A stretch of DNA of 61,995 bases, the filler included, from Actinomycetota bacterium (GTDB lineage Bacteria > Actinomycetota > Actinomycetes > JAKEEW01): assembly GCA_046725875.1 (NCBI GenBank). It is 3 parts of 3 records of this genome, joined end to end, with 100 filler letters (N's around TTAATTAATTAA, not from the genome) between each part and the next. Parts side by side here need not be neighbours in the genome. Positions count along the whole stretch, not along the records: positions 43,924 to 61,995 come from JBKOZJ010000104.1; 2 more parts are not named here. The stretch is one strand, 5' to 3'. A program made the translations under genes and the position numbers. The notes below the pieces were generated by a model, which saw nothing but the letters and a program-made list of their open reading frames with translations, did not search any database and was not told the origin of the DNA. Numbering within the stretch: the stretch's first letter is position 1; each line of letters starts with the position of its first letter. Positions 43,824 to 61,338 of the stretch are shown here, one piece after another.

Positions 43824-43923
43824 NNNNNNNNNNNNNNNNNNNNNNNNNNNNNNNNNNNNNNNNNNNNTTAATTAATTAANNNNNNNNNNNNNNNNNNNNN
43901 NNNNNNNNNNNNNNNNNNNNNNN
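43824..43923. other. Artificial contig spacer
   Basis: N44-TTAATTAATTAA-N44, identical to 17742-17841. Confidence 0.98.
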
Positions 43924-44380: not shown

Positions 44381-44507
44381 GACGCACGACCCTGCCACAT
44401 CGGCACGACAAGGTACCTCCCGCTAGTTCTCGTACCGCGCTAACTCCACGAGCGAGCTCCGCACGCGCGCCGACGTTCTCAGAAAGCCGCTGTGGTTGGC
44501 TCGGATC

Positions 44508-45092: not shown

Positions 45093-45170
45093 TGATCAGA
45101 CAGTGGTAGCACAGGAGCCTCTCCGCTTGATCGTTATCTCCCGACTACCAGACGGTTGACCGAATTGCGA

Positions 45171-45800
45171 TCAAGGCAGCTGGCCGAAGACGTGTTGGCG
45201 GATCCAGGCGTGCATGGCGATGGCGGCCGCCGCACCGGCGTTGATCGAGCGGGTTGAGCCAAACTGAGCGATCGAGCAGACCAGTCCCGCGGCCTGTCGC
45301 GCGGCGTCCGACAAGCCGGGCCCTTCCTGGCCGAAGATCAGCAGGCTGTGCCGGGGAAGGGCGGTCGTCTCCAGCGGCACCGCGCCGGGCAGGTTGTCGA
45401 CGCCGATCAACGTCAGCGCGTGCTCCTTCCCGTACAAAACAAGGTCGGGCACGGACGGATGGTGGCGGATGTGCTGATAACGGTCGGTCACCATCGCACC
45501 GCGACGGTTCCACCGCCGGCGACCGACAATGTGCACCTCCCGAGCGAGGAACGCGTTCGCGGTCCGAACCACGCTGCCGATGTTGAAATCGTGCTGCCAG
45601 TTCTCGATCGCGATGTGGAACTCGTGCCGGCGCTGGTCGAGATCGGCAACGATCGCCTCACGCCGCCAATAGCGGTATCGATCGAGCACGTTGCGCCGAT
45701 CGCCGTGCGCGAGCAGCTCGGGATCAAGGCGCGGATCATCGGGCCACGGCTTCGGGTGAGGACCCGCCCCCGGTTCGACCCGATCGAAGTCCGCAACCAC
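45171..45800 (-). CDS. TrmH/SpoU RNA methyltransferase
   Basis: NIGSVVRTANAF, FGQEGPGL, RSINAGAA. Confidence 0.92.
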   Translation of the reverse strand: MVADFDRVEPGAGPHPKPWPDDPRLDPELLAHGDRRNVLDRYRYWRREAIVADLDQRRHEFHIAIENWQHDFNIGSVVRTANAFLAREVHIVGRRRWNRRGAMVTDRYQHIRHHPSVPDLVLYGKEHALTLIGVDNLPGAVPLETTALPRHSLLIFGQEGPGLSDAARQAAGLVCSIAQFGSTRSINAGAAAAIAMHAWIRQHVFGQLP

Positions 45801-45931
45801 GCGCCAAGGCTACGAGTCTGGTCAGTGAGCGGCGATGTGGTCAGGAAAAGCAACGAAGGAGGCAGGCACACGTGTCGCGCCCGTCCGGGGAACGGGCGCG
45901 ACTGTCACGTTCATGAGTTCGCTGCTGAAGA

Positions 45932-46144
45932 TCACTCCAGGGCACGCTGCTGCTGCGCTGGGATGCCCTGCAGCAGGGCGCGGACCTCGGCCTCACGGTA
46001 ACGGCGATGGCCGCCGAGTGTCCTGATCGACGTCAGCTTGCCGGCCTTTGCCCACCGCGTCACCGTCTTTGGGTCGACCCGGAACATCGTGGCGACCTCG
46101 GCCGGGGTGAGCAACGGCTCGGCGTCGGGGGTTCGTGCTGTCAT
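45932..46144 (-). CDS. bldC: BldC family MerR-like DNA-binding protein
   Basis: MTARTPDAEPLLTPAEVATMFRVDPKTVTRWAKAGKLTSIRTLGGHRRYREAEV; GGGAGGAGG RBS. Confidence 0.97.
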   Translation of the reverse strand: MTARTPDAEPLLTPAEVATMFRVDPKTVTRWAKAGKLTSIRTLGGHRRYREAEVRALLQGIPAQQQRALE

Positions 46145-46474
46145 GTCGGCCTCCTCCCGGGCACCGAACCATCCTGGTTCGAGAATATCCTGCCTTAGAC
46201 CAGCTTGTCCCCAAATGGCCCTTGCGGACCATCTTATTGGCGATCGAGTGACTACGCCGTCACCAGAAACGGCTCCACCACTTGGCGTCGCCTGGTCTAC
46301 ATACGGCGTCAATGGTGAAAACCGGCCTACAGGAACAAAGCCGATCGCAGTGGATCAGAAAGTGTAGTGGTCGCTTCACAGATGGGCGGTCAAATCCCGA
46401 AATCTCACCAGCGAGTGCCGTGATCGGCAGAACCGCCGTCAGCGCTCCCTAATCGCCACGAAATCCGCAGCAAA

Positions 46475-47323
46475 TCAGCTCGCGCGTTCCAAAGCCTGAA
46501 CCATGCGCCAGCGCTCCATCAATCTGGCGTAGGCGGCCGCGGCCGCTTTGGGATCGTGTGCGGCGAGTGCCCGGACCGCCTCGCCGACGATCGCGGCCGA
46601 GTCGTCCTCTGCCAGCGCGTCGTCATCGATCACCTGTACCAGCCCGCCGTAGTCGAGCTCCACCCAGGCGTGCGGGTGGAACTCCTCCAGCCAGCGCCCC
46701 AGCTCGATGACCCCGGCAATGATCGGACCGTCCTCGATGGTTCGTTCCAGCACCCGAAGTGCCCGCGCCACTCGCCGGCGCGCCTCGACCATCGGCGTAC
46801 GGAAGAAGAACGCGCGCGGTTCGCTCTCGCTGCCGAGCTGAAAGACTCGCTCCCGCTGCACGAATGGGATGAACCAACGGAGCGGCACGAACCAGGTGTT
46901 GGTGAGGATGTGCGGCGCCCGTGGCCCGGCGTCGGCGAGCCAGCGGCGATGGTCTGACAGCACCTCGTCAAGAGTGACCGGGGGTACGAATGCCTCCGCG
47001 ACCCGCGTAGGCACCTCCTGCATGAACTCTTCCAGGGCCGACCAGGCCCGCAGCCGGGTGTCGAACGGACAAACGAAGGCCCTGCCATCGACGGTGAGGA
47101 CAAACGCGTCCCCGCTCTCGTGCGGCGGGACGACGGCGGGCGGGGTCGCCAGCAGCCCGGTCAGGGCCCGGCGATGCTCATCGGCGGCCCCGGCTACCTG
47201 GTCGGGGGCGTCACCGGACGTGACGAGTGCCGCCCACTGGCGGCGCGCCGCACCCCTGAAGGCGTCGAGTGGCTCGTACACCCGCAGGTAGGCGGCGTAG
47301 GGCGTCAGCACCGAGGTCCTCAC
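46475..47323 (-). CDS. Conserved actinobacterial hypothetical protein (bldC-vdh neighbour)
   Basis: PYAAYLRVYEPL, VPLRWF, WLEEFHP, VELDYGGL. Confidence 0.8.
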   Translation of the reverse strand: MRTSVLTPYAAYLRVYEPLDAFRGAARRQWAALVTSGDAPDQVAGAADEHRRALTGLLATPPAVVPPHESGDAFVLTVDGRAFVCPFDTRLRAWSALEEFMQEVPTRVAEAFVPPVTLDEVLSDHRRWLADAGPRAPHILTNTWFVPLRWFIPFVQRERVFQLGSESEPRAFFFRTPMVEARRRVARALRVLERTIEDGPIIAGVIELGRWLEEFHPHAWVELDYGGLVQVIDDDALAEDDSAAIVGEAVRALAAHDPKAAAAAYARLMERWRMVQALERAS

Positions 47324-47454
47324 GCTATGAATCCTCGCACGCAGCGGCGCGAAAACCGGATCACATGAGTTCCAGATGTCCGGCGCCAACGCTTTAGGGT
47401 GGCCAGTGAATGCCCGCAACCACCCCCAAGCGGGCCGACACAGGAGTCACTACA

Positions 47455-48570
47455 GTGACCGACGCGACCCCAGATGACGTACCGCCGACCGGCGGCACGC
47501 AGGTATTCGGCCGGCACACCGGCCATGAGCAGGTCGTCTTCTGCCAGGACGAAGCGAGCGGGTTGAGGGCGATCATCGCGATCTACTCGACTGCACTCGG
47601 GCCCGCCCTCGGCGGGACCAGGTTCTATCCATACGAGACCGAGGACGCTGCGTTGGCCGACGTACTCAACCTCTCCAAGGCAATGGCCTACAAGGCCGCA
47701 ATGGCCGGTCTCGACCTCGGCGGGGGCAAGGCCGTGATCATCGGAGACCCGGCCCGAGACCAGAGCGAGGCGTTGCTGCGGGCCTACGGGCGATTCGTCC
47801 AGTCGCTCAATGGCCGCTACATCACCGCGTGCGATGTCGGCACCTACATGGAGGACATGGATGTCATCGCCCGCGAATGCGACTTCGTAACCGGGCGGTC
47901 TCTGGAACACGGCGGCGGCGGTGACTCATCGATCTTGACCGCGTTCGGCGTCTTCCAAGGAATGCGCGCATCGGCCGAGCACACGTGGGGCGAGCCCACG
48001 CTGCGGGGCCGGCGGGTCGGCGTGGCCGGCATCGGCAAGGTCGGGCGGCACCTGGTCGAACACCTGGTCGAGGACGGCGCCACGGTCCTGGTGAATGACA
48101 TCAGCGCGGAGGCGGTCAACTGGGTGCGGACCAACCACCCGGAGGTTGAGGTCATCCCGACCGTGGAGGCACTGATCGCCGCCGATCTCGATGTGTATGC
48201 ACCGTGCGCGCTGGGCGGCGCCCTGAACGACGACTCGGTACCGGCCCTGACGGCGAAGATCGTATGTGGCGCGGCCAACAACCAGCTGGCGCATGTCGGG
48301 ATCGAGAAGATGCTGGAGGAACGCGGAATCCTCTACGCCCCGGATTATGTCGTCAATTCGGGCGGGCTGGTGCAGGTCGCCGACGAGATCGAGGGCTTCA
48401 TCTTCGACCGTGCCAAGATCAAGGCGGCCCAGATCTTCGACACGACCAAGCGGGTCTTCGCGATCGCCGCCGAAGAGGGCGTCCCTCCCGCGGTCGCCGC
48501 CGATCGGCTGGCCGAGCAGCGGATGGCCCAGATCGGCCGGCTGCGTGGCGTGTGGCTGCCCCGCCCTTGA
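47455..48570 (+). CDS. vdh: Valine/leucine dehydrogenase
   Basis: [49 protein letters not shown] before GTG 47455. Confidence 0.93.
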
Positions 48571-48685
48571 TCACCGCGTTTTTGCGGCCCCGGACTAGCG
48601 GCCGTGGTGCTGGCAGCGGTCGTTGATTGGCGCCGACCGTTACCGTCTGGCGGCCGAACCAGGTACCGTAGAGGCACGCAAACCG

Positions 48686-48715
48686 GCTAGCGGCTCGTTA
48701 GACCTGGCCGCTAGC
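48686..48715. other. Stem-loop between vdh and DUF3073 (terminator or leader structure)
   Basis: GCTAGCGGC / GCCGCTAGC perfect 9-bp stem. Confidence 0.4.
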
Positions 48716-48771
48716 TGTGATTCGTGTGTGAGACCACATGAGGCGGCAGCCTCGCTGAAGGGGGTCGAGCC

Positions 48772-48990
48772 ATGGGGCGCGGCCGCGCTAAGGCCAAGCA
48801 GACGAAGGTCGCTCGCCAGCTGAAGTACAGCTCGGGCGGGACCGACCTCGAATCTCTGCGTCGCGAGTTGCTCGGTGAGGACACCAGCGACAAACGCGAC
48901 GAGCCCAACGACGAGTACGACGACCTCTACGCCCGGTATGCCGATCTCGCCGAGGAGGATGGCGGCGAGAACGAGGACTCACGCAGGTAG
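48772..48990 (+). CDS. DUF3073 family protein
   Basis: MGRGRAKAKQTKVARQLKY, acidic tail. Confidence 0.93.
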   Translation: MGRGRAKAKQTKVARQLKYSSGGTDLESLRRELLGEDTSDKRDEPNDEYDDLYARYADLAEEDGGENEDSRR

Positions 48991-49120
48991 GCCAGCCGAC
49001 GAAGTCTTTGTTCCCTGACGCCCGATCGCTGGCTGCCGCTGGCAACACCGCGTTGCCTTGACTGGAAGGCATGTCCTACGGCCAGCGAGCGGCGGGTTCC
49101 GCCGTGTCCGATCGCCGTCG

Positions 49121-50194
49121 CTAAAGCGCCGTTCCGTAGGCGCCATGGAGCCTGACCCGGCCGGAGCCAGGCGTGACCGTGCCGGCGGCCCATGCGCGGA
49201 GCCCGCGCTCGGACAAGATGCGGATCGCTCGGTCTGCATCGCCCGGTGCCACGATCGCGGCCATTCCCACGCCCATGTTGAGGGTGGACTCGAGCTCGGC
49301 TTGAGCGACGTCGCCCACCGATCCAACGAGCCCGAAGATCGGCGCCGGCGCCCAGCTCGACCGGTCGACCATCGCGTCCACCCGCGGCGGCAGCACCCGC
49401 GCGAGGTTGGCCGCAAGGCCGCCGCCGGTGCAGTGGGCTAGCGCGTGTACGTCGGCGGCGGCGGCCACGGCCAGGCAGTCCCGCGCATAGACGCGGGTCG
49501 GCTCGATGAGCTCCTCGCCGAGGGACCGGCCTAGCTCGGTGACCCACCGATCGACCGTCCAGCCTGCCCGGTCGAAGAAAACATGCCTGACCAGCGAGTA
49601 ACCGTTGGAGTGCAGTCCGGTCGAAGCGATCGCGACCACGGTGTCCCCCGACCGGACACGCTCTGGGCCGAGCAGATCCGCCTCGTCGACCACCCCGGTC
49701 GCGGCCCCGGCCAGGTCGTACTCCCCGGGCCCGAGCAGGCCCGGATGCTCTGCTGTCTCGCCCCCGATCAGCGCGCAGCCGGCGACCTGGCATGCTTCCG
49801 CGATGCCCCGGACGATCGCGGCCACTCTCTCGGGGATGAGCTTTCCGCACGCAATGTAGTCGGTCAGGAAGAGCGGCTCCGCACCGGACACAACAAGATC
49901 GTCCACGACCATGCCGACCAGGTCGAAGCCGATCGTGTCGTGCTTGTCGAGCAGCTGTGCGATCGCGACCTTGGTGCCCACGCCGTCCATCGACGTCGCG
50001 AGGACCGGACTAGTCATCACCTTCAGTGCGTCGGCCCGGAATAGACCAGCGAATCCGCCCAGGCCGCCGATGACCTCCGGGCGGGTGGCCTTGCGCACCG
50101 AGGCCCGCATCAGCTCGACGGCCCGTTCCCCGGCTGCAATGTCGACCCCGGCCGCTGCATAGGTCGCCGACTCCGGCCGGGCAGCGGCCTCCAC
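49121..50194 (-). CDS. purM: Phosphoribosylformylglycinamidine cyclo-ligase
   Basis: YAAAGVDI, GGFAGL, DGVGTK, GGETAEHPG, GLHSNGYSL, NMGVGM. Confidence 0.97.
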   Translation of the reverse strand: MEAAARPESATYAAAGVDIAAGERAVELMRASVRKATRPEVIGGLGGFAGLFRADALKVMTSPVLATSMDGVGTKVAIAQLLDKHDTIGFDLVGMVVDDLVVSGAEPLFLTDYIACGKLIPERVAAIVRGIAEACQVAGCALIGGETAEHPGLLGPGEYDLAGAATGVVDEADLLGPERVRSGDTVVAIASTGLHSNGYSLVRHVFFDRAGWTVDRWVTELGRSLGEELIEPTRVYARDCLAVAAAADVHALAHCTGGGLAANLARVLPPRVDAMVDRSSWAPAPIFGLVGSVGDVAQAELESTLNMGVGMAAIVAPGDADRAIRILSERGLRAWAAGTVTPGSGRVRLHGAYGTAL

Positions 50195-51786
50195 TAGGAG
50201 GCCTCGGAGCTGCGCGTACGAGCGCGCCGCGCCTGGCTACCACTCGGCGGGCCGATGGCCGCTCCCGCTTGACCGGCGCCGGCCTGCCGGCCGACCCGGG
50301 GTGAGCCCGCCGTCGGGCCGGGATCTCCGGCGACTCGCACGCGCTCCAGCAGATGCTTGTCGAGCAGCTCAGGTTCGGGCAGCTTGATCGGATACATTCC
50401 ATCGAAGCACGCGCGGCAGAGCCGCTCCCCCGCCACCCTGGTCGCCGCGACCATCCCTTCGAGGGAGATGTACCCAAGCGAGTCGGCGCCGATCGATCGC
50501 CGGATCTCGTCGCCGGTAAGCCCGTTGGCGATCAGCTCAGCCCTGGTGGCGAAGTCGATACCGAAGAAGCACGGCCATTTGACCGGCGGGCTGGAAATGC
50601 GTACATGAACCTCCCGCGCGCCTGCCTCCCGGAGCATGCGAACCAGGGCGCGCTGGGTGTTCCCGCGCACGATCGAGTCGTCCACGACGACCAGCCGGCG
50701 GCCGTCGATGACCTCACGCAGGGTGTTGAGCTTGAGCCTGATGCCGAGCTGCCGGATCGTCTGGCTGGGCTGGATGAAGGTGCGGCCGACGTAGGAGTTC
50801 TTCACCAAACCCTGCCCATAGGGGATGCCGCTCTGCTCGGCGAAGCCGATCGCGGCCGGCGTGCCCGACTCGGGAGTCGGAATCACCAGGTCGGCGGCGA
50901 CCGGTGCCTCCCGAGCGAGCGTGCGGCCCATCTCCAACCGCGCGGTGTGTACAGACCTGCCAGCGATCGTGGTGTCCGGCCGAGCCAGGTAGACGTACTC
51001 GAAAACGCAGCCGGCCGGGCGCGCCTCGGCAAATCTGCGCGACCGCAAGCCATGCTCGTCGATCGCGATGAGCTCGCCCGGGTCGACCTCACGAACAAAG
51101 CTAGCCCCCACGATGTCCAGCGCCGCCGTTTCGCTCGCCACGACCCAGCCGCTGTCCAGCCGGCCAAGCACCAGCGGCCGGAAGCCGTGCGGGTCGCGCG
51201 CAGCATAGAGCGTGGTCTCGTCCATGAAGACGAAGCTGTACGCACCGTCCAGGGTGGGCAGCACGTCGAGCGCGGCGGCCTCGATCGACCGGTCGGGCTG
51301 GCTGGCGAGCAGCTCGGCAACGAGGTCGGTATCGCTGGTCGCCGCCCGGGTGCCCGGCGGGGCGTGCTGACGGGTCCCGGAGGCGATCAAATCGCCGGTG
51401 TTGACCAGATTGCCGTTATGCGCCAGCGCGATCGAGCCAGTGGAGGTGGACTTGAAGGTGGGCTGGGCGTTCTCCCACACGGAGGAGCCGCTCGTGGAGT
51501 AGCGGCAATGACCGACGGCGAGGTGTCCGCGCAGCGACTCCAGGGTGGCCTCGTCGAAGACCTGGGCCACCAGGCCCATGTCCTTGTAGACCACGATCTG
51601 CGAACCGTTGCCGACCGCAATGCCCGCCGACTCCTGCCCGCGGTGTTGCAGCGCGTAAAGCCCGAAATAGGCCAGCTTCGAGACATCCTCCCCCGGCGCC
51701 CAGACGCCGAAGACGCCGCATGCGTCGCGCGGGCCTTTCTCGTCGGGGAGGAGATCGTGGCTCAGCCGTCCATCACCGCCTGGCAC
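50194..51786 (-). CDS. purF: Amidophosphoribosyltransferase
   Basis: CGVFG, LQHRGQE, HNGN, VVDDSIVRGNT, CRAC. Confidence 0.97.
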   Translation of the reverse strand: MPGGDGRLSHDLLPDEKGPRDACGVFGVWAPGEDVSKLAYFGLYALQHRGQESAGIAVGNGSQIVVYKDMGLVAQVFDEATLESLRGHLAVGHCRYSTSGSSVWENAQPTFKSTSTGSIALAHNGNLVNTGDLIASGTRQHAPPGTRAATSDTDLVAELLASQPDRSIEAAALDVLPTLDGAYSFVFMDETTLYAARDPHGFRPLVLGRLDSGWVVASETAALDIVGASFVREVDPGELIAIDEHGLRSRRFAEARPAGCVFEYVYLARPDTTIAGRSVHTARLEMGRTLAREAPVAADLVIPTPESGTPAAIGFAEQSGIPYGQGLVKNSYVGRTFIQPSQTIRQLGIRLKLNTLREVIDGRRLVVVDDSIVRGNTQRALVRMLREAGAREVHVRISSPPVKWPCFFGIDFATRAELIANGLTGDEIRRSIGADSLGYISLEGMVAATRVAGERLCRACFDGMYPIKLPEPELLDKHLLERVRVAGDPGPTAGSPRVGRQAGAGQAGAAIGPPSGSQARRARTRSSEAS

Positions 51787-51869
51787 GCCCGAAGTCTACG
51801 CGGCGAGACCATGCCCCAGCCGTCAAGCAGAGGCACCGTCGCCCTCACGCCGCGTAAAGCTCGGGCGGC

Positions 51870-53405
51870 TCAGAATTCGGCGGTCGGGGTCCAGGTGCCA
51901 TGGACGCCGCGGAGGACCGAGACGATCTCGCCGACTGTGGCATACGCAGACACGGCCGCTACACACGGCTCGACCACGTTGTCGCCGGCGGCGGCCGCTT
52001 GCCGCAGATCAGCAAGGGCGCGCTCCACCGCCGGTGCCGATCGCCGCGCCCGGACGGCTTCCACGGCGGCAACTTGTTCCGCCTCCACGCCCGGCTCAAC
52101 CGCGAAGACCTCGATCGGCTCCGGCGGGACCGCGAACCTGTTCACGCCGACGACAACCCGCTCGCCGGTCTCGACCGCTCGGGCCGCCCGATAGGCCGCA
52201 TCCGCGAGCTGCCGCGCGTACCACCCGGAGTCGATGCACGCCAGTGACCCACCGCGGTCCTCGATCTCCCGCATCAGCGCGACGATCCGCTGCTCCAGCG
52301 AATCGGTGAGCGACTCGACGACGTATGACCCGGCGAGCGGATCGACGGTCGATGTGAGGCCGGTCTCGAACGCGACGACCTGCTGGGTGCGGAGGGCAAG
52401 CGTCGCCGCGGCCTCGGTGGGCACACCGACCGCCTCGTCGTACGCGCATACGTGCATCGTCTGCACGCCGCCCAGCGCCGCGGCCAACGCCTCGACCGCG
52501 GTCCGCGCGACATTGGTCAGCGGCTGCTGGGCCGTCAACGACGACCCCGCCGTGAAAACGAAGATGCGCAACTGCATCGACCGCGGGTCGACGGCGCCGT
52601 AGCGGTCGCGCAGCAGCTTCGCCCAAACCCGGCGAGCCGCCCGGAACTTTGCAACCTCGGCCAGGACGTCCATGGTCGTCGACAGGAACGTGTAGAGGGT
52701 CGGCGCGACCGCGTCCACCGGCACGCCACGGGCAATGGCGGCGTCGAGATAGGCGATTGCGTTGGAGGAGGTGAACGCGATCTCCTGGGCCGCATCCGAG
52801 CCGGCTTCCCTGATGTGGTAGCCGCTCACAGCCAGCGGCGTCCACCGTGGCACGTGCTTTGTCGCGTACTCGACCACGTCAACCGCGAGCCGCAACGACG
52901 GCTCGGGCGGAAAGATCTGAGTGCCGCGCGCGATGAATTCCTTGAGTACGTCGTTCTGAATGAAGAGCCCGAAGGCATTCGGGTCGGCACCCCGGCTGCG
53001 GGCGAGTGCGACGAAGAACGCCGCCCAGAGGTAGCCGATAGCGTTGGCCGTCGTCCTGACCTGGCCGATCTGTTCGAGCGGTATGCCCGCCATCAATGTC
53101 TCGATGTCGGCCAGCGAGTCGATCGCGACGCCGACCCGGCCAACCTCGCCCGCCGCCCGCGCATCGTCCGAGTCGAGGCCCATTTGGGTGGGCAGATCGA
53201 GCGCGACCGAGAAGCCAGTGACGCCCGCGTCGAGCAGCGCGCGGAACCGCCGATTGGTCTGCGCCGGCGTGCCGAAGCCCGCGTACTGCCCCATGATCCA
53301 TGGCTTGGGTTCCGGGGAGATGCCTCTTGTGTACGGGAACTCGCCCGGGTGCTCGGCGCCATCGGGCGCCAGGAACGGCGGCACCTGCGGATCGGACCTG
53401 GTCAT
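51870..53405 (-). CDS. Divergent AdoCbl-dependent acyl-CoA mutase large subunit (no B12-binding domain)
   Basis: PGEFPYTRG, QYAGFG, DLPTQMGLDSD, GEVGRVGVAIDS, IQNDVLKE, GYHIREAG, DEA, RTQQ, DPLAGS, VGVNRF, ATVGEI; no DxHxxG. Confidence 0.9.
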   Translation of the reverse strand: MTRSDPQVPPFLAPDGAEHPGEFPYTRGISPEPKPWIMGQYAGFGTPAQTNRRFRALLDAGVTGFSVALDLPTQMGLDSDDARAAGEVGRVGVAIDSLADIETLMAGIPLEQIGQVRTTANAIGYLWAAFFVALARSRGADPNAFGLFIQNDVLKEFIARGTQIFPPEPSLRLAVDVVEYATKHVPRWTPLAVSGYHIREAGSDAAQEIAFTSSNAIAYLDAAIARGVPVDAVAPTLYTFLSTTMDVLAEVAKFRAARRVWAKLLRDRYGAVDPRSMQLRIFVFTAGSSLTAQQPLTNVARTAVEALAAALGGVQTMHVCAYDEAVGVPTEAAATLALRTQQVVAFETGLTSTVDPLAGSYVVESLTDSLEQRIVALMREIEDRGGSLACIDSGWYARQLADAAYRAARAVETGERVVVGVNRFAVPPEPIEVFAVEPGVEAEQVAAVEAVRARRSAPAVERALADLRQAAAAGDNVVEPCVAAVSAYATVGEIVSVLRGVHGTWTPTAEF

Positions 53406-54997
53406 CGCTCGCCCGCTTGCGGTGCAGAACCTGTCACCGGGTCGAGGACACCTGGTCGGGCATCCGCCCGGAGCTTGCCGGCCTCGAGCTGCTCGCGCAG
53501 CACCTTCTTGGCGATCTTCCCGGTCGAGTTGAGCGGGAACGCGGCCACGCGCCGCACGTCTTTGGGTTTCTTGTACGACGCGAGCGCGGCGCGGCAGTGC
53601 TCGAGTATCTGCTCGGCGGTCACGGTCGCCCCGGGATGAGTCGTGTATAGCGCGGTGACCCGCTCTCCCCAGTCGGGGTCGCTCACCCCGACGACGGCCA
53701 CTTCGTGCACTCCCGGCACGGCGGCAATGACGTCCTCGATCTCCCGCGGATAGATGTTGTAGCCCCCTGAGATGATCATGTCGCCCTTGCGGTCGACAAG
53801 GTAGAGGTAGCCGTCATCGTCCAGCTGGCCGAGATCACCCGTGTGCAGCGAGCCGTTGACAACGGTCTTCACATCCTCGCTCGCGCGGCGCCAGTAGCCG
53901 GTCATCACGTGGTCGCCCCGCGTCACCACTTCGCCAACGGTGCCCGGCCCGACGGGCAGTCCCTCGTCGTCGACCACCCAGAGGTCGACGGCAAGGCACG
54001 CCCGGCCGGCCGATGTCAGCAGATCGCTCGCTTGGGATAGGCCGCGCTCGTGGTCGGCCCGGTCGAGCACGGTCACCGGCGGGATCGCCTCGACCAGGCC
54101 GTAATACTGCACGAGGTTTGGCGTGATCCGCTCGTGCGCCTGGCGGATCTGCTCCGGCGCCATGGGCGCTCCTGCGTAGCCGAGCATCTGCAGCCCCCGC
54201 ATCCGATCCGGTGTGCAGTCGGGCCGGGCGAGCAGCCGCGCGACCATGGTCGGGACCAGCGCGGTCGCCGTACCGCCGCGATTCTCGACGGCATCGAGCA
54301 GGGCTTCGGGGTCGTAGTCGGGGAGGATGAGCTGGCGCGCGCCGTAGGCGAGGTAGGGCAGGGTGAACAGCCCGCTGGTATGCGTCACCGGGCCGGCGTG
54401 CACCCACACGTCGTCCTCGTCTGGGCGAATGGGGAGGATATCGGTGATCATGTTCCGCAGACTGGCCAACCGGTTGCGGTGGGTGCGCTTGGCCCCCTTC
54501 GGCCGGCCGGTCGTGCCGGAGGAGTAGTTCAGCGACACCAGGTCGTCAGCGCTTCCGGTTGGGCGGGGAAGCCGGCCGCCGGCGGTTGCCAACTTCTCGT
54601 ACGGGACGCCGGGCCCGTCGCCGATCACGAGCACGTGACGCGTGCCGGCGCGCAGGTCCTCGGTCTGCTCGGCAAAGCGGGCGTCGTAGATCAGGGCGCT
54701 GGCCGCGCAGTCTTGGGCAATGTACGCCCAGTCCTCCGGGCGCAGCCGGTAGTTGAGCGCCACTCGTACGAGACCAGTGCAGGCCAGGGCGAGGTCCGTC
54801 TCGACGTAGCTGACCTGATTGGTCTGCAGGTCGAGCACGCGATCGCCGGGCTGGAGGCCGAGCCGGTGCAGGCCGGCCGCGACAGCGCCGATCCGCTGGC
54901 CGAGCTCGGCGAATGTTCGCGTCCCACCCGGTCCCTCCAGCGCGATCCGGTCACCGTAGCGGCGGACCGCCCGGGCGATGACGTCACCCACCTGCAT
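53402..54997 (-). CDS. AMP-forming acyl-CoA synthetase / ANL ligase
   Basis: YSSGTTGRPKG, YYGLVE, LHTGDLG, DRKGDMIISGGYNIYP, TGKI; GGAGG RBS before ATG 54997; stop overlaps mutase start (ATGA). Confidence 0.93.
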   Translation of the reverse strand: MQVGDVIARAVRRYGDRIALEGPGGTRTFAELGQRIGAVAAGLHRLGLQPGDRVLDLQTNQVSYVETDLALACTGLVRVALNYRLRPEDWAYIAQDCAASALIYDARFAEQTEDLRAGTRHVLVIGDGPGVPYEKLATAGGRLPRPTGSADDLVSLNYSSGTTGRPKGAKRTHRNRLASLRNMITDILPIRPDEDDVWVHAGPVTHTSGLFTLPYLAYGARQLILPDYDPEALLDAVENRGGTATALVPTMVARLLARPDCTPDRMRGLQMLGYAGAPMAPEQIRQAHERITPNLVQYYGLVEAIPPVTVLDRADHERGLSQASDLLTSAGRACLAVDLWVVDDEGLPVGPGTVGEVVTRGDHVMTGYWRRASEDVKTVVNGSLHTGDLGQLDDDGYLYLVDRKGDMIISGGYNIYPREIEDVIAAVPGVHEVAVVGVSDPDWGERVTALYTTHPGATVTAEQILEHCRAALASYKKPKDVRRVAAFPLNSTGKIAKKVLREQLEAGKLRADARPGVLDPVTGSAPQAGER

Positions 54998-55840
54998 CTC
55001 GTGTGCCCTCCATCCACCATCATCGTGGCAGCCGGCCGCAGCGTGAGCCTGTGCAGTCCCGGACGAGCACCAAATGGTGAAATGACCCACGCTTTCAAAC
55101 GGTGTGCGCGCCACTAGTACAGGCGACCGGGCGAGGGCGAATCGCCGGGCATCTTCGCTGCGCAGCGTGACCATCCGTTGGACGCGTGAGCCACGCCGTG
55201 CCGCGCGACTTCCGAATGTGGGTGTGCGTGCCCGAGGACCGACAACCACGCCGTGGCGCTCGGCCGCGGCATCCCGACCCGGTCCTCGACCGTACGGCGC
55301 GGAATCTGCCGCCGGTGTGCCCATGCTTCCACGCAGCGATCATTCCTTGGCATCTGCGCGCACGAACAGCCCTCGCGTGATCAACCCCTGGCATTATGGC
55401 GGCACCCAGCAGCCCGAGTGGATCATTCCGCGGCATTGCTGCAGGAGTTTGATCACCCTTTGGATCGGAGCGTGGCATCTCTGCAGCACGAAATCGACGA
55501 TTCCTTCAGGCAGAACTGCCAACCCTTGATCCAACAGGTGATCAACTTGCGGCAGCAGTGCCTCACTCTGATCGTCATCAAATCCAGGGTGATGCACCGC
55601 TGCCACGACCTGATCGGCGGGTGAAGCGCCCCAGCGCATTGACGTTCCGAATATAGGAGACCAGCTGGCTGCCCGCCGACAGCGGACGGATGACCACTTC
55701 GGTGACGCCCAGGTACTCCGTTGGGCTTGATTGCCAGCGCCGAGCACCGGCCGGGGAGCCGCAGTCGACCGGATCAGATGTGGGGTGGATCATGGAGCCT
55801 TGAAGTGCAACCGCTGTGGGCAGGCCGGGGTTCTGAGGGT

Positions 55841-56605
55841 GTGATGACTGAAGCGGCTCCTGCGGGGGGCAAGCCCCCCGCATACCCCCCGTTCCAGGCT
55901 GCGGTTCTGGCGGCCCCTGCGTTCCAGGCTGCGGGCGGCAAGCATCCCTACCCCCCGTTCGAAGCCGCCGAGGGAGGCATTCTCGATGCGTACTCGGCCT
56001 CACCGGGGGTGGATGCCGATGATCGCGGCATTGCGGCCGAGCACGAGGACGACGTCCGGCGGGCGCTCGTCCTCGACCTCGACGGCGGGTTCGTCGCGCT
56101 CTACGACGCCTACCAAGGCGTGGTCTTCTCCGTAGCCCTTCGGCTGTGCGGTCGCTGGGCGGACGCGGAGGACCTGAGCGCCGAGGCGTTTCTGCGTGCC
56201 TACCGTGCGCTGGCCGGCTATCCAATGGATCGCTTGGCAGTGCTGCGGCCGCGATCTTGGTTGGTCACGATTCTGCTCAACGTGTGGCGAAACAGCCGCC
56301 GGGCCGCGGGCCGGCGGACCCGCTCGGCCCCGCTCGACCATGCTCCGGAACCGGCCGACCCGAACGCGGACGTAGAACGGGCGGTCGAACGAGCCGAGAC
56401 CGAGAGGGAGCTGGCCGGGCTGTTGCGCGAGCTGCCCGAGGCCCAGCGGATCGCGGTGGTCTTGCGGCACGTGGTCGACCTGTCTATCGCGGAGATCGCG
56501 GACGTGCTCGACCGACCGGAAGGAACCGTGAAGTCGCACATCTCGCGCGGCCTGACCCGGCTGCGCGAGCTCCAGGCCAAGCAACACGAGGTGTCCAATG
56601 ACTGA
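55841..56605 (+). CDS. ECF RNA polymerase sigma factor
   Basis: DAEDLSAEAFLRAY, RSWL (region 2); LPEAQR...IAEIADVL..PEGTVKSHISRG (region 4); GCAACC-N17-GTTC just upstream. Confidence 0.92.
   Translation: MMTEAAPAGGKPPAYPPFQAAVLAAPAFQAAGGKHPYPPFEAAEGGILDAYSASPGVDADDRGIAAEHEDDVRRALVLDLDGGFVALYDAYQGVVFSVALRLCGRWADAEDLSAEAFLRAYRALAGYPMDRLAVLRPRSWLVTILLNVWRNSRRAAGRRTRSAPLDHAPEPADPNADVERAVERAETERELAGLLRELPEAQRIAVVLRHVVDLSIAEIADVLDRPEGTVKSHISRGLTRLRELQAKQHEVSND
55862..55957 (+). repeat. Two copies (one degenerate) of the G6-N4-C6 palindromic repeat inside ECF sigma 5' end
   Basis: 55862-55891 GCGGGGGGCAAGCCCCCCGCATACCCCCCG (perfect 9-bp stem); 55931-55957 GCGGGCGGCAAGCATCCCTACCCCCCG. Confidence 0.6.
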
Positions 56606-57359
56606 TGAACTGCTCACCATCGAGCTCGGGGCGCTTGCCACCGACGCCCCGTCCGGACTGCTCGACCGAGTCGCCGCTCGCTGGGTTCAGGTGCCCGGTC
56701 CGATCGGGGAGCTGTACGTGGCCACGACCGACCAGGGAATCGCGTACGTACACATGGAGCCGTCAGTAGGCGACGACACGACCTTCGCGGCCTCCTTCCG
56801 GAAGCGATTCGGCCGCCCGCTGCTCCCAGCGAGCCGCCCGCCGGCCGGACTCACCACCGCACTTCGAACGGGGAATGCCGCCGGGCTGCGATTCGACCTG
56901 CGTGGGTCGACCGAGTTCGACCAGGCGGTCCTACGGTCAGCATTGACGATTCCGCGCGGAGAGATCCGGCCGTACTCCTGGATCGCTCGGGAGATTGGCC
57001 GCCCGCGTGCGGTGCGCGCGGTCGGGTCGGCGCTTGCCCGCAACCCGGTGCCTGTCCTGATCCCCTGCCACCGGATCACCCGCGCCGACGGGACGATCGG
57101 AGACTACGTCTTCGGGTCGCCGGTCAAGGAGTCGCTCCTGCGCGCCGAGCACGTGAACCTGGACGACATGCGGGAGCTTGCTCGCTCCGGCGCCTACTTC
57201 GTCGGCAGCGACACGACCGGCATCTTCTGCTTCCCGACCTGCCCGAACGGCCGCCGCATCACGCTCCGGCACCGGCATGACTTCCGCACCGTCGACGAAG
57301 CCGTGGCGGCGGGCTACCGGCCGTGCCGGCACTGCCGACCCGCCGAGGCGGCGTCGTGA
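56598..57359 (+). CDS. Methylated-DNA-protein-cysteine methyltransferase fused to C-terminal Ada Zn domain
   Basis: AVRAVGSALARNP, PCHR; C-terminal TTGIFCFPTC...GYRPCRHCRP. Confidence 0.93.
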   Translation: MTDELLTIELGALATDAPSGLLDRVAARWVQVPGPIGELYVATTDQGIAYVHMEPSVGDDTTFAASFRKRFGRPLLPASRPPAGLTTALRTGNAAGLRFDLRGSTEFDQAVLRSALTIPRGEIRPYSWIAREIGRPRAVRAVGSALARNPVPVLIPCHRITRADGTIGDYVFGSPVKESLLRAEHVNLDDMRELARSGAYFVGSDTTGIFCFPTCPNGRRITLRHRHDFRTVDEAVAAGYRPCRHCRPAEAAS

Positions 57360-57522
57360 GCCGCCTGACAGCGGATCTCTTCCTGGCGGTTCGACTGAGG
57401 TGTTCCCGCACGCCAACCCGGCAGATGTGCGGCCCTTCAGTCAGACATATCGCCTGAGCGGGCCGCCTCATGCGCGGAGAGTAGCCTGCTGTCCGAGGAG
57501 TACGAGCTAAGCAGGAGGACGG

Positions 57523-58131
57523 ATGGCTTCCGCCAAACCGGAGTCCGAGAGCGTCAACCCGCGACCCGCAGGCGCCGCGAAGTTGCAGTCGGCCGACGCG
57601 AAATCGCGATCCGCCGTGCGCGAGAAGCCGCAGTCGGCCGACGCGAAATCGCGATCCGCGGTGCGCGAGAAGCCGCAGTCGGCCGGCGCGAAAACGCGAT
57701 CCGCGGTGCGCGAGAAGCCGCAGTCGGCCGACGCGAAAACGCGATCCGCCGTGCGCGAGAAGCCGCAGTCGACCGACGCGAAAACGCGATCCGCGGTGCG
57801 CGAGAAGCCGCAGTCGACCGGCGCGAAAACGCGATCCGCGGTGCGCGAGAAGCCGCAGTCGGCCGGCGCGAAAAAGCCATCCGCAACGCGCGAGACGCCG
57901 CGGCCGGGGGTGGCCCCGAAGGCAGAGTCAAAGGCCGCGCCGGTTGAGAGCGTCGAGGTAAAGGGCGCCGGCGAGGAAGCGAAGCAGAAGTTCCGGGAGG
58001 CGCTCGAACGCAAGCGCAATCAGCAGGGGGACCACGGCACCGGTTTTGCCGGCCCCGACTCGTCCAAGATCCATGGTGCCCAGGGGCCGGCCTTCAGCCG
58101 GCGTACCTTCCGCCGCAAAGCCGGTAGCTAA
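57523..58131 (+). CDS. DUF5302-type protein with N-terminal tandem repeats
   Basis: AGGAGG RBS; C-terminus KFREALERK...SKIHG...RTFRRKAG. Confidence 0.8.
   Translation: MASAKPESESVNPRPAGAAKLQSADAKSRSAVREKPQSADAKSRSAVREKPQSAGAKTRSAVREKPQSADAKTRSAVREKPQSTDAKTRSAVREKPQSTGAKTRSAVREKPQSAGAKKPSATRETPRPGVAPKAESKAAPVESVEVKGAGEEAKQKFREALERKRNQQGDHGTGFAGPDSSKIHGAQGPAFSRRTFRRKAGS
57586..57900 (+). repeat. Intragenic tandem repeat, 7 x 45 bp
   Basis: Unit cagtcggccgacgcgaaaacgcgatccgcggtgcgcgagaagccg encoding QSADAKTRSAVREKP; last copy degenerate. Confidence 0.95.
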
Positions 58132-58174
58132 CCCCGACCCGGCAGGTCCGGTCATCTGACAACACAATGGGATC

Positions 58175-59767
58175 GTGACGGACATCGCGGATGCTGCGCC
58201 CGGCGGGAGGTCTGGAGAAGTCATTCCCCCGGAAAGCGCGGCCGGCAGGCGCGGAGCCGCAGTCCCGACAGAGGGAACGGCCGGCCGGCGCGGAGCCGCA
58301 GTCCCGACAGAGGAAACAGCCGGCCGGTCCGCAGCCGCAGTTCCAGGGGATGGGACGGCCGACAGGTCCGGAGATGTTCTTGCTCCGCTGAGCGCCCCCG
58401 ATCGGCCGCTGGCAGGTAGGCCGCACCAGTCGCTTCTTGACATGCCTGGGCCGCGCGCGAACCCGTTCGTCGGGATGGCGATGGAGTTCCGCCGCGGAGT
58501 ACTCCAGACGCTACTGCGCGGGTTCCACGAGTACGGGGATCTCGTCGCGTACCGCTTCGGGCCGGCGCGCGGACCGAGGCGTCAGTTCGGCGTCGCGGCG
58601 CACCATCCGGACTTGGTCCGGCAGGTGTTGATCGAGAGCGAGCGCAGCTACGGCAAGGACACCGTTGGATTCCAGATCCTCTCCGACATGCTCGGCCGCG
58701 GGCTGTTGACGACCGAGGGTGAGGTGTGGCGCCGGCAGCGCCGTACCCTCGCGCCTCTATTCACCCCGCGTCGAGTCGCGCTTTACGCGGACTTGATGCA
58801 GGACGAGGCGAACCGGGTTGTCGATGACTCGCAGCACGACAGCGCGAGGCTGCGAGCCGACACGTCGGCGGCTGCGGGGAACGCCGACCCGGTGGACCTG
58901 CATCTGCTGATGATGCGTTACACGCTCCGGGTCGTGGGGCGCGCGCTCTTCGGCGAAGACGTCGATGAGGCGATTCCCGCGCTACACCGGCTGGTTCCGC
59001 TGGCCGGCCGGCTGACCCAGCAGCGCACGCTGCAATTCGTCAGGTTTCCGCTCGACTGGCGTACCCCCCGTAACAAGCGCACGCAGAGGGTGCGAGCGGA
59101 GCAGTACCAGATCGTCGATCGCATCCTCGCCAGGCACACCACCAACGTTGCCGACGGCGAGGATCTCGTGACCCGTCTGCAGGCCGTGCGCGACCCGGAA
59201 ACCGGTGAGCCGTTGTCCGAGGCGGAGATTCGAGACCAAGTCCTGGTGTTCCTGCTTGCCGGACACGAAACAACGGCAGGGGCGCTTACCTTCACACTGC
59301 ACCTGCTCGGCAGTCACCCCGAGCTGCAGGACACGGCGGCCGGGGACGGCGCGCTGCAGCGCGCCTCGCTGCTCGAAGGCATGCGACTCTTCCCGCCGGC
59401 CTACCTCACCGAGCGGCTGACGACGACAGACACCGAGATCGGCGGGTACGCGATTCCACGTGGCACGCTGGTCGTTGTTTCGCCGTGGGTGACGCACCGG
59501 CACCCGGCCTTCTGGCCGCAGCCCGAGCGCTTCGATCCGTACCGCTTCCTCGGAGAGCACGACCGGCCGCGATACTCGTACTTCCCCTTCGGCGGTGGCC
59601 CGCGTAGCTGCATCGGCGAGCACTTCGCCATGCTCGAGGCGGAAATTCTGCTGCGTACTCTGCTCCGCAGGTTTCGGGTCGAGTCGCTTTCCGGCGACCT
59701 TCAGACGGTCGCACACGTCACCCTGCGCCCCGCCGGCCCGGTGCCCGTCCGCCTCCGGCCGCGCTGA
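58175..59767 (+). CDS. Cytochrome P450
   Basis: AGHETT, ExxR (EGMR), PERF, FGGGPRSCIG; CACAAT 6 nt before GTG 58175 (alt start ATG 58442). Confidence 0.96.
   Translation: MTDIADAAPGGRSGEVIPPESAAGRRGAAVPTEGTAGRRGAAVPTEETAGRSAAAVPGDGTADRSGDVLAPLSAPDRPLAGRPHQSLLDMPGPRANPFVGMAMEFRRGVLQTLLRGFHEYGDLVAYRFGPARGPRRQFGVAAHHPDLVRQVLIESERSYGKDTVGFQILSDMLGRGLLTTEGEVWRRQRRTLAPLFTPRRVALYADLMQDEANRVVDDSQHDSARLRADTSAAAGNADPVDLHLLMMRYTLRVVGRALFGEDVDEAIPALHRLVPLAGRLTQQRTLQFVRFPLDWRTPRNKRTQRVRAEQYQIVDRILARHTTNVADGEDLVTRLQAVRDPETGEPLSEAEIRDQVLVFLLAGHETTAGALTFTLHLLGSHPELQDTAAGDGALQRASLLEGMRLFPPAYLTERLTTTDTEIGGYAIPRGTLVVVSPWVTHRHPAFWPQPERFDPYRFLGEHDRPRYSYFPFGGGPRSCIGEHFAMLEAEILLRTLLRRFRVESLSGDLQTVAHVTLRPAGPVPVRLRPR
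58241..58357 (+). repeat. Tandem repeat, 3 x 39 bp
   Basis: gccggc(a/c)ggcgcggagccgcagtcccgacagagg(g/a)aac(g/a) twice plus one degenerate copy (AGRRGAAVPTEGT). Confidence 0.85.
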
Positions 59768-59798
59768 CGATCGCCCTCGGCGGCTAGGGCTTCGCGCG

Positions 59799-60272
59799 TC
59801 AGTGTGGGTTGGCAACCAGCTCGGCCAGGCGGTCGAGGAACTCGCGCTGACCGGCGATGATCTTCTTGTGCGCATCCGCCAACGGAAACCAGCCGGCCTG
59901 GTCGATCTCTGGGAACTCCTGCCACCGTCCGGACCTGGGCGGCCACTCCATTTCGAACATCCCGGGCACCACGGCTGCGGGGTCGAGGTCGCCCTCGACC
60001 GCCCAAACGATCACAACCTTCCCGCTCGGCTGCCGGACCTCGCCGAGCGCCCGGAAGTCGCCGTCTGGCGGCGGCAGCCCGAGCTCCTCCAAGAACTCGC
60101 GGCGCGCCGCGGCTACCGCCTCCTCGTCACCGTCGTACTCCCCCTTGGGGATCGACCACGCTCCGGCATCCTTCTTCGCCCAGAAGGGGCCGCCCATATG
60201 CCCGAGCAACACCTCCACCCCGCCGGCGCCGCGGCGAAAGAGCAAGATCCCGGCGCTTCGCTTGTCAGTCAC
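59799..60272 (-). CDS. NUDIX hydrolase
   Basis: SAGILLFR, HMGGPFW, PKGE...AARREFLEELG, FPEID. Confidence 0.92.
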   Translation of the reverse strand: MTDKRSAGILLFRRGAGGVEVLLGHMGGPFWAKKDAGAWSIPKGEYDGDEEAVAAARREFLEELGLPPPDGDFRALGEVRQPSGKVVIVWAVEGDLDPAAVVPGMFEMEWPPRSGRWQEFPEIDQAGWFPLADAHKKIIAGQREFLDRLAELVANPH

Positions 60273-60334
60273 ACAACCGATTCTGCCGGGTGCCCGACGC
60301 CTGGCTGGTTCGGGCGGCAGCGACCACCGCCACG

Positions 60335-60396
60335 TCACAAGCTATGCGGCAGCAGCCGCACAGCTGCGTCACAGGCTGCTCACAAGGCACTCGCAG
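60335..60396 (+). promoter_or_regulatory. 11-bp-periodic direct repeats (OmpR-family-type binding array)
   Basis: gcacag 60358, tcacag 60369, tcacaa 60380, tcgcag 60391, plus tcacaa 60335. Confidence 0.55.
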
Positions 60397-60468
60397 GTGG
60401 GGCGACGAGTGTTGTCGTGCCGATGTCCCAAAGACGGGGCGCTCGCGACGAGATGGGAGCCTTTACTG

Positions 60469-61314
60469 ATGCCACCGGAGGAGTTGCACGACCACGACCG
60501 GGGACTGTCCCAGGACCTGCCGATCTTGCTGAGCCGCCGGCGGGCCCTCTCGGTCTTCGGCGGCGCCGGGCTGGCGGCGGCGCTCGCCGGCTGTGGGCTA
60601 GGTGGCGACGACAGCCAGAGCTCAGGCAACCCGGCGATCCCAGCGAACTCCCCCAGTGCCAGCACTGGGACAGGCGACCCGCCGGCGACCGGCGACGAGA
60701 TCCCGGAGGAGACCGGCGGCCCCTACCCCGCTGACGGGTCTAACGGCGTGAACGTCCTCACCAAGAGCGGGATCGTCCGCCGCGACGTCACCCGAAGCTT
60801 CGGCTCCGCGTCCGGAATTGCGGAAGGTATCCCGCTGACGATCCGGCTTCGCGTCCTCAACGTAAGCAAGGATGCGCAACCGCTTGCGGGTGCGGCGATT
60901 TACCTCTGGCACTGTACGAGGGAGGGCGGCTACTCCCTCTACTCCGCCGGGCTCACCGCGCAGAACTTCCTTCGCGGCGTCCAGGAGGCCGGAGCGGACG
61001 GTTCGGTGACCTTCACCAGCATCTTTCCGGGCGCCTACTCGGGCCGGTGGCCGCATATCCATTTCGAGGTCTATCCGAGCCTCTCGGCGGCGACATCGGC
61101 CAGCGGCAAGCTCCGGACGTCGCAGCTCGCGCTGCCCGAGGATGCGTGCCGGCGTGTCTACGCAATGGAGGGATACGAGGAGAGCCTAGGCAATCTCGCG
61201 CAGACCTCATTGGACACGGACAACGTCTTCAGCGACGGCTACTCCCTTCAGCTGGCATCGGTGACCGGCGATGCGACCTCCAGTATGGTCGCGACCCTGA
61301 ACGTGCCTGTGTAG
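60469..61314 (+). CDS. Tat-exported intradiol dioxygenase-like lipoprotein
   Basis: SRRRALS Tat motif, LAGC lipobox, GPYP, YLWHC, LRGVQ, YSGRWPHIHF. Confidence 0.88.
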   Translation: MPPEELHDHDRGLSQDLPILLSRRRALSVFGGAGLAAALAGCGLGGDDSQSSGNPAIPANSPSASTGTGDPPATGDEIPEETGGPYPADGSNGVNVLTKSGIVRRDVTRSFGSASGIAEGIPLTIRLRVLNVSKDAQPLAGAAIYLWHCTREGGYSLYSAGLTAQNFLRGVQEAGADGSVTFTSIFPGAYSGRWPHIHFEVYPSLSAATSASGKLRTSQLALPEDACRRVYAMEGYEESLGNLAQTSLDTDNVFSDGYSLQLASVTGDATSSMVATLNVPV

Positions 61315-61338
61315 TGCCGCGTCCTGCGTACCCGCGGC

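Follow-up and report, generated by a model that had tools for sequence, protein, structure and literature searches.

Which acid is activated, and which carbon skeleton is rearranged, by an acyl-coenzyme A (CoA) ligase and a B12-dependent mutase whose genes overlap, when many motifs of the mutase differ from those of its characterised relatives? The question is raised by a gene pair in a stretch of 61,995 nucleotides, here called the window, from an actinomycete metagenome-assembled genome (Actinomycetota bacterium, JAKEEW01 lineage, GenBank assembly GCA_046725875.1; 3.76 Mb in 197 contigs, 89% complete). The window consists of the end of contig C102, all of C103 and all of C104, joined by N runs at 17742-17841 and 43824-43923, and genes flanking these gaps are not necessarily neighbours in the genome; the pair lies on C104 (window 43924-61995). 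We think it probable that these two genes code for a ligase that activates an acid and for the large, catalytic subunit of an adenosylcobalamin (AdoCbl)-dependent acyl-CoA mutase belonging to a conserved, uncharacterised clade. An earlier note, made from the sequence alone, had described a two-gene unit with an ATGA overlap directly before purF, and this arrangement was confirmed:

53402..54997, minus strand: AMP-forming acyl-CoA ligase, 531 aa (PF00501 and PF13193)
53402..53405, minus strand: ATGA overlap of ligase stop and mutase start, read in the sequence; translational coupling
51870..53405, minus strand: acyl-CoA mutase large (substrate-barrel) subunit, 511 aa, without a B12 domain (PF01642, TIGR00641)

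Specifically, the ligase gene ends ...GAG CGA TGA and the mutase gene begins ATG ACC..., with ATGA common to both, and a similarly tight junction or overlap of the two genes is also found in relatives. In the proposed scheme the ligase would make the CoA thioester of a carboxylic acid and the mutase barrel would bind this ester; a B12-binding subunit encoded on contig C177 (motif DGHDRG) would dock under the barrel, with the MeaB encoded on C105 loading the cofactor, and a 1,2-shift of the thioester carbon would follow.

With respect to family, the mutase matches PF01642 at 590.8 bits (cut-off 22.1; residues 16-503) and TIGR00641 at 550.3 bits (cut-off 303.8), and its best solved relative by sequence is the large subunit of 2-hydroxyisobutyryl-CoA mutase (HCM; 4r3u_A, 1.4e-127). 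An AlphaFold2 (AF2) model (predicted local distance difference test, pLDDT, 84.8; predicted template modelling score, pTM, 0.87) has the (beta/alpha)8 barrel fold of solved mutases, with template modelling (TM) scores of 0.92 to 4r3u_A, 2xiq and 1req_A; its weak parts are residues 1-10, the shortened loop 29-33 and residues 323-327.

Residue-by-residue alignments to solved HCM and methylmalonyl-CoA mutase (MCM) chains bore out each of the motif substitutions that had been listed by eye (numbers are those of P. shermanii MCM unless query residues are named). The mutase reads WIMGQY where the canonical motif is WT(I/M)RQY, RTTAN for SMT(I/M)N, ARGTQ for xRxTY, PTLYTF for PRLSFF, LRIFVFT for LR(T/F)HxQT and MHVC for LHTN. 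At single positions, Thr85 is replaced by Ile, Arg87 by Gly (Gly39 of the query), Ser164 by Arg, Thr195 by Phe, Arg283 by Thr, Ser285 by Tyr, His328 by Phe (Phe282), Gln330 by Phe (Phe284), Ser362 by Thr and Asn366 by Cys (Cys320). Kept are Tyr89 (query Y41), Gln197 (Q150), Arg207 (R160), Tyr243 and His244 (Y196/H197), Arg326, His364 and Asp369/Glu370 (D323/E324); we take Tyr89 and Arg207 to hold the substrate carboxylate in MCM, and Gln197, Tyr243, His244 and Asp369/Glu370 to be catalytic and adenosyl-side residues. The YxTMY..R segment, which the earlier note described as missing, is indeed three residues shorter (TRGISPEPKPW as opposed to TRGPYxTMYxxRPW), but the catalytic tyrosine is not lost with it, since HCM has an Ile (Ile90) at the Y of (R/G)QY, which identifies that kept residue as Tyr89.

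An unbiased count placed these changes in proportion. In all, 91 positions are conserved at 90% or more in a set of 21 clade rows and at 85% or more in a set of 41 canonical rows; of these, 80 are identical between the two sets (including Gln197, Tyr243/His244, Arg326, His364 and Asp369/Glu370) and 11 differ, three of which had served to define the canonical set; R, H and Q stand at Arg87, His328 and Gln330 in 41/41 canonical rows, these being the positions that defined it. The human MMUT counterpart of Arg87 is Arg108, a residue in the wall of the substrate tunnel whose replacement by Cys (R108C) causes severe disease, according to PMC11988910. Judging from residue alternation along the strands, most of the 11 differing positions would face into the barrel. 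Aromatic residues (Phe148, Tyr/Phe238, Phe282 and Phe284) take the place of small or polar tunnel residues and the N-terminal arm is missing, which raises the alternative of a non-catalytic, beta-subunit-like scaffold with a plugged barrel that partners another mutase subunit; in MCM, larger side chains occupy the barrel of the inactive beta subunit. We hold this to be quite improbable, since the 80 retained positions include all the catalytic ones, and since the AF2 model lies nearer to the substrate-bound MCM alpha chains 1req_A/4req_A (TM 0.92, root-mean-square deviation 1.9 Å) than to the inactive beta chains (TM 0.63-0.71). Moreover, identities of 70-89% across families indicate strong constraint on the protein, the sister form carries a fused B12 domain, and translational coupling to a ligase makes little sense for a scaffold.

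The place of the mutase in its family was examined in a FastTree tree of 150 rows and an IQ-TREE quick tree of 44 rows, with branches labelled by signature residues, PDB matches and source names. The mutase clade is monophyletic in both (starred support 100), and its nearest kin are P0124, P0125, P0148 and P0128 (joint starred support 97), of which the first two are 54% identical to the mutase and are without the loop deletion, while P0128, a sister form, has an N-terminal B12-binding domain. No fused form of the clade, with a B12 domain and above 54% identity, was found among proteins of at least 896 aa or among near-length matches. The MCM-type rows and those of isobutyryl-CoA mutase (ICM) type, including the paralogues on C102 and C39 of the same genome, form a separate group (starred support 96), the HCM-type row P0155 (521 bits to 4r3u_A) lies in a different starred group, and the MeaA-type row P0139, whose relatives are named 'protein meaA' and which keeps the Tyr/Arg pair and has a C-terminal B12 domain, falls in a different group again (starred support 95). 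The mutase nests with none of these rows. The idea of a distinct clade with a changed tunnel has thereby gained ground, as the two trees and a signature fixed in 32 loci support an undescribed-looking clade outside the MCM-, ICM-, HCM- and ethylmalonyl-CoA mutase (ECM)/MeaA-type groups.

Comparison with each characterised enzyme leads in the same direction. HCM specificity resides in Ile90, Asp117 and a Gln at the Arg207 position; where HCM 4r3u_A reads rqIagf, stDfd and maQke, the mutase reads GQY, SVALD and ARGTQ, with Tyr, Ala and Arg at the three sites. An identity as HCM was rejected on this signature and on the grouping of P0155 elsewhere. The HcmA/HcmB system of Aquincola tertiaricarbonis with its ligase HCL (4r3u) nonetheless offers the closest solved fold (42% identity) and, like the present system, splits the large subunit from a separate small B12 subunit; as in the hcl-hcmAB locus described in PMC7176365, the mutase gene stands beside an acid-CoA ligase gene, but unlike at the hcmAB locus no hcmB or meaH gene adjoins the C104 pair. 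With the MCM alpha subunit (P. shermanii 1req; human MMUT) the mutase shares all of the kept residues named above, and it differs in the shortened YxTMY loop, in Ser285 to Tyr/Phe and Asn366 to Cys/Ser changes across its clade, in lacking the N-terminal arm and the fused B12 domain, and in its separate clade. Its score against the MCM equivalog NF006944 is 482.5 bits for a cut-off of 876, in a model built on fused enzymes, and it was not grouped with MCM because Arg87, His328, Gln330 and Asn366 are replaced and its clade is separate. ICM and IcmF carry Phe and Gln instead of Tyr89 and Arg207, a signature that the C39 paralogue shows (RQF...AQKEW); the mutase has Tyr and Arg and reaches 246 bits against NF045497 (cut-off 1500), and an ICM identity was rejected. 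MeaA belongs to the same superfamily and keeps the Tyr/Arg pair, but MeaA-type proteins have the C-terminal B12 domain that the C104 mutase is without, and with the tree groups also differing this identity was rejected too. As the protein carries none of the full signatures of MCM, ICM, HCM and MeaA, we classify it no further than as the large subunit of an acyl-CoA mutase from a new subfamily, apparently a conserved, undescribed specificity variant of a known enzyme kind. We infer that its substrate is not methylmalonyl-, isobutyryl-, 2-hydroxyisobutyryl- or ethylmalonyl-CoA.

Beyond the clade itself, a looser set that includes it comprises 43 of the 150 representative rows, having Tyr89 and Arg207 without Arg87 (support 89, unstarred); in Syntrophus and Desulfobacteraceae genomes, genes for a ligase, a small subunit and in some cases MeaB adjoin those of its members (L052, L067, L069). 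The 43 rows are spread over many deep, unnamed branches, and the acyl-CoA mutase family seems, from this distribution, to hold far more specificity classes than those characterised. A separate observation is P0129 (679 aa), a natural fusion of a Glyoxalase_4 domain of the methylmalonyl-CoA-epimerase type with a canonical MCM-type large subunit.

A near-length protein search returned more than 120 clusters of the clade among the matches listed, at 71-89% identity and all of 486-517 aa, whose source names are only 'methylmalonyl-CoA mutase (family)' or 'acyl-CoA mutase large subunit family protein'. The signature was checked in 32 related loci of at least 66% identity, titled as Sporichthyaceae, Intrasporangiaceae genera, Nocardioides, Micromonosporaceae, one Streptomyces, Pseudonocardiaceae, Thermoleophilia and Candidatus Limnocylindria. 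MGQY occurs in 31/31 loci covering it, RTTAN in 30/31 (one RSTAN), Phe at the Thr195 position in 31/32, RGTQ in 32/32, IF[AV]FT in 30/30 and VQT[ML]H..YDEA in 30/30. The substitutions are hence not peculiar to this genome, as they would be in a decaying gene, and decay was rejected. Since a phylum-wide sample gave mostly canonical matches of about 50%, uninformative for the clade, it was replaced by 401 evenly drawn genomes of the class with a stricter threshold; the clade was present in 17 of these, in 15/174 genera and in 4/6 genomes of the organism's own family.

Turning to the ligase, its orthologue (53-77% identity) lies directly upstream of the mutase in 26 of the 32 related loci, and likewise at all six further loci drawn from the class sample. 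Two of the six loci without an adjacent ligase have no upstream DNA (L030, L039), a third has the end of an ADP-forming synthetase gene in its place (L037), and in the other three a tight operon of family III CoA-transferase, thiolase and mutase replaces it (L017, L019, L025). The suggestion that ligase and mutase act as a pair is upheld by these counts, and the ligase is a conserved partner of the mutase.

Other recurring neighbours in the 32 loci, counted from open reading frame (ORF) calls and Pfam scans of recurring clusters, are enzymes of CoA-ester metabolism. An ADP-forming acyl-CoA synthetase stands directly before the ligase in 14 loci. An enzyme matching NF006101 ('salicylyl-CoA 5-hydroxylase/oxidoreductase'; 1221 bits, above the cut-off) occurs in nine; its architecture, FAD plus OYE, is that of 2-aminobenzoyl-CoA monooxygenase/reductase, and in several Intrasporangiaceae translational coupling links its gene to that of the synthetase. 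A benzoate-CoA-ligase-family enzyme is found in 9/32, a PcaF-like thiolase in 11/32, a short-chain dehydrogenase/reductase (SDR) in 8/32, a MenB/BadI-like crotonase in 7/32, and a thiamine diphosphate (ThDP) enzyme and the regulator PaaX in 4/32 each. In the organism's own genome the corresponding orthologues lie elsewhere: the synthetase on C25, the hydroxylase/reductase on C116, the second ligase with the SDR on C127, and the thiolase, crotonase and ThDP enzyme together on C101. Within the class sample, an NF006101 gene was seen in 13/17 clade-positive and 44/384 clade-negative genomes, counts that include the unpublished G422 and G740, without which the clade-positive figure is 11/15.

In architecture the ligase is an ordinary two-domain acyl-CoA synthetase of the ANL type (AMP-binding, PF00501; AMP-binding_C, PF13193). 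None of the best 25 of its 104 NCBIfam matches reaches its cut-off (the top one, NF004837, gives 429 bits where 476 are required), and its closest solved relatives are fatty-acyl- and feruloyl-CoA synthetases, FadD enzymes and malonyl-CoA synthetase; the 36 solved ligases listed for it at E <= 1e-40 include no HCL chain. This build, together with neighbours that work on CoA esters (thiolase, crotonase, family III CoA-transferase, ADP-forming CoA synthetase), bears on the earlier conjecture that the ligase loads an acyl group onto a non-CoA carrier, an acyl carrier protein (ACP) or pantetheine, for the mutase to act on. The changed residues appear to be those lining the CoA tunnel, which would speak for such a carrier, but general scans of C104 and of the recurring clusters of the 32 loci, which included no dedicated PP-binding search, turned up no carrier-protein gene, and in three loci a family III CoA-transferase gene directly precedes those of thiolase and mutase. 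The conjecture found no support, and we regard this mode of action as highly improbable.

Among the ligase's relatives, malonyl-CoA synthetases (4fuq_A, 1e-62; NF005702, 283 bits, below its cut-off) would suit a second MCM isozyme, one with a CoA tunnel of different build but the usual interconversion of methylmalonyl- and succinyl-CoA, as would the retention of Tyr89, Arg207, Tyr243, His244 and Gln197, which we take to be the substrate-holding residues in MCM. Yet a canonical MCM-type large subunit is already encoded in the genome (C102), the clade branches outside the MCM/ICM group, Arg87, His328, Gln330 and Asn366, invariant in the 41 canonical rows, are replaced, and the patchy distribution within the class is tied to aromatic-CoA rather than propionate genes. 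An isozyme of this kind is accordingly unlikely in our estimation.

A catalytic role for the mutase would require a B12-binding subunit, and the genome holds a single free one (C177, DGHDRG) and a single MeaB (C105) for three free large subunits, namely those on C102 (MCM signature) and C39 (ICM signature) and the C104 mutase; none of these five adjoins another. The earlier statement that no small subunit or MeaB is nearby is correct, but it covers only the 18 kb of C104. In 5/5 related genomes examined, including the single-contig G478, a single free small subunit likewise accompanies two or three free large ones. Small-subunit genes stand directly beside clade genes in L023 and L029 and within 5 kb in L028, L039 and L101. 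Modelled as a complex, the mutase and the C177 subunit scored 0.71 (best control 0.00), a value reached by 116/157 solved complexes and 2/215 mismatched pairs; the runs agree in at least 92% of contacts, with partner pLDDT of at least 81. The model supports binding between the two, although, with HcmAB solved, the pass may only reflect likeness to HcmAB and is not proof. With one small subunit and one MeaB for three large subunits, sharing in trans is likely, and the proposal of a B12 subunit supplied in trans has stood. The only MeaB lies at a contig end (C105:11195-15741, L094), beside thiolase, Glyoxalase_4 (epimerase-like) and zinc-ADH/CCR-like genes and far from the genes of all three large subunits.

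As to the substrate, retention of Tyr89, Arg207 and His244 suggests one in which the migrating centre is flanked by a carboxylate or an isosteric carbonyl; most likely it is a substituted succinyl- or malonyl-CoA or a 4-oxoacyl-CoA, of which the former is the most conservative guess. The neighbourhoods point to a setting, since the operon in relatives, which adds PaaX, an NF006101 enzyme and an enzyme of the benzoate-CoA-ligase family to the pair, resembles the 2-aminobenzoyl-CoA/salicylyl-CoA 'hybrid' pathway. In Arthrobacter Rue61a an anthranilate-CoA ligase, an NF006101-type reductase and PaaX-like regulators are described in PMC3534580, whose main text has 0 occurrences of 'mutase'. A literature search that left subscription journals largely uncovered returned no paper linking aminobenzoyl- or anthraniloyl-CoA to a B12 mutase, no description of the clade, no B12-dependent reaction assigned to the aminobenzoyl-CoA pathway, and no mutase for levulinyl-CoA or 4-oxopimelate. 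The pair probably serves aromatic-acid catabolism through CoA thioesters of the anthraniloyl/salicylyl-CoA type, ending at a thiolase.

Two loci show features of their own. L102 (G686:C5:319000-338900) carries the full operon of PaaX, ligase2, SDR, hydroxylase/reductase, synthetase, ligase and mutase, in which the hydroxylase/reductase, ligase and mutase each match in several pieces, as if frameshifted; either decay of this copy or faulty assembly may be the cause. In the Thermoleophilia locus L017 (14457-19845), PPDK_N and PEP-utilizers proteins are encoded after a gene of the benzoate-CoA-ligase family close to the mutase, a pairing that to us is reminiscent of phenylphosphate-synthase-type enzymes.

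A more specific and doubtful possibility, drawn by chemical reasoning from the neighbourhoods only, is that the clade acts as a 4-oxoacyl-CoA mutase, with a ketone in place of the carboxylate of succinyl-CoA, turning a gamma-keto thioester closed to beta-oxidation into a thiolase-cleavable 2-methyl-3-oxoacyl-CoA. The BadI/MenB-like hydrolase would open the dearomatised 2,5-dioxocyclohexane-carbonyl-CoA to 4-oxopimelyl-CoA, the mutase would convert this to 2-methyl-3-oxoadipyl-CoA, and the PcaF-like thiolase would release succinyl-CoA and propionyl-CoA; the CoA-transferase operons of L017, L019 and L025 could then recycle succinyl-CoA as CoA donor.

A different assignment, to secondary metabolism, is suggested by ActD (actinonin), which according to PMC5719088 is likewise a split actinomycete large subunit with its small subunit encoded elsewhere and was placed in the HCM subclass; for ActD and for MatB (matlystatin), conversion of hexylmalonyl-CoA to 2-pentylsuccinyl-CoA is proposed there. 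An alkylmalonyl-CoA mutase of this sort would agree with the Tyr/Arg pair and the more hydrophobic pocket, which suit alkyl- or aryl-substituted malonyl- or succinyl-CoA. The same paper presents ActD/MatB orthologues as few in actinomycetes and each within a biosynthetic cluster with ccr and epimerase genes, whereas the C104 clade is large, common and found among catabolic CoA-ester genes, a contrast drawn from their descriptions. No ccr, epimerase or non-ribosomal peptide synthetase (NRPS) gene was found among the recurring neighbour clusters, singleton neighbours not being scanned, and we give this assignment little credence.

Several observations weigh against a catalytic mutase of the anthraniloyl/salicylyl-CoA type. 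Arg87, essential in MCM, is Gly, and three tunnel positions have become Phe and one Tyr, so that the tunnel could be narrowed or blocked; the mutase is also without the N-terminal arm of about 55 residues. Because the pathway genes are scattered over contigs in the organism's own genome, the link to the pathway is by association only, and because related genomes are not independent we make no statistical claim for the co-occurrence with NF006101. The hydroxylase/reductase is also widespread without the mutase (20/22 genomes of family f3), and in four of the 17 clade-positive genomes no intact NF006101 gene was seen, three of these genomes being 78-96% complete and one having a fragmented copy. 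Finally, an Rfam search of C104 gave no match to any RNA family, a B12 riboswitch included.

Because C104 is a separate contig, its true context amounts to only 18 kb, in which the minus strand carries four consecutive genes, ligase, mutase, purF and purM:

50194..51786, minus strand: purF (amidophosphoribosyltransferase; TIGR01134, 526 bits, above the cut-off)

The ligase start (ATG at 54997) is preceded at 8 nt by GGAGGG, and a longer ORF, open up to 55324, is probably not used. purF begins 83 bp downstream of the mutase gene; a scan of this gap found no terminator-like site, and a promoter scan found none. The link to purF implied earlier extends to the nearest relatives only (3/32 related loci and L103), for which reason functional coupling to purine synthesis was rejected and purF is probably a neighbour, not a functional part of the unit. 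Plus-strand genes follow, a DUF3073 gene and a Glu/Leu/Phe/Val dehydrogenase gene. An extracytoplasmic function (ECF)-type sigma factor gene (55721-56605) is oriented away from the ligase, and after it an ORF (56598-57359, plus strand) joins a methylguanine-DNA-methyltransferase DNA-binding domain to a following Ada zinc-binding domain. A search for the query in sequencing runs listed no RNA data set, and the DNA shares in six metagenome runs were small (0.05-0.09).

To our knowledge only a handful of acyl-CoA mutase specificities have been established (methylmalonyl, isobutyryl, ethylmalonyl, 2-hydroxyisobutyryl and pivalyl/isovaleryl, with hexylmalonyl proposed), and each new one has so far opened a pathway or an engineering route. 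Here a large and tightly conserved clade, with Gly in place of an arginine indispensable in the human enzyme and Phe-Phe in place of the His/Gln of all canonical enzymes, carries the database label 'methylmalonyl-CoA mutase'. As the mutase comes with its own ligase, its substrate should be findable by a simple screen, and the genes found around the pair direct attention to the lower part of the aerobic anthraniloyl/salicylyl-CoA pathway. If it is indeed a 4-oxoacyl-CoA mutase, it would represent a new substrate class for B12 mutases and would supply the lower half of that pathway. For the organism itself, three mutases that apparently share one B12 subunit and one chaperone raise the question of how cofactor-loaded subunits are allocated among them.

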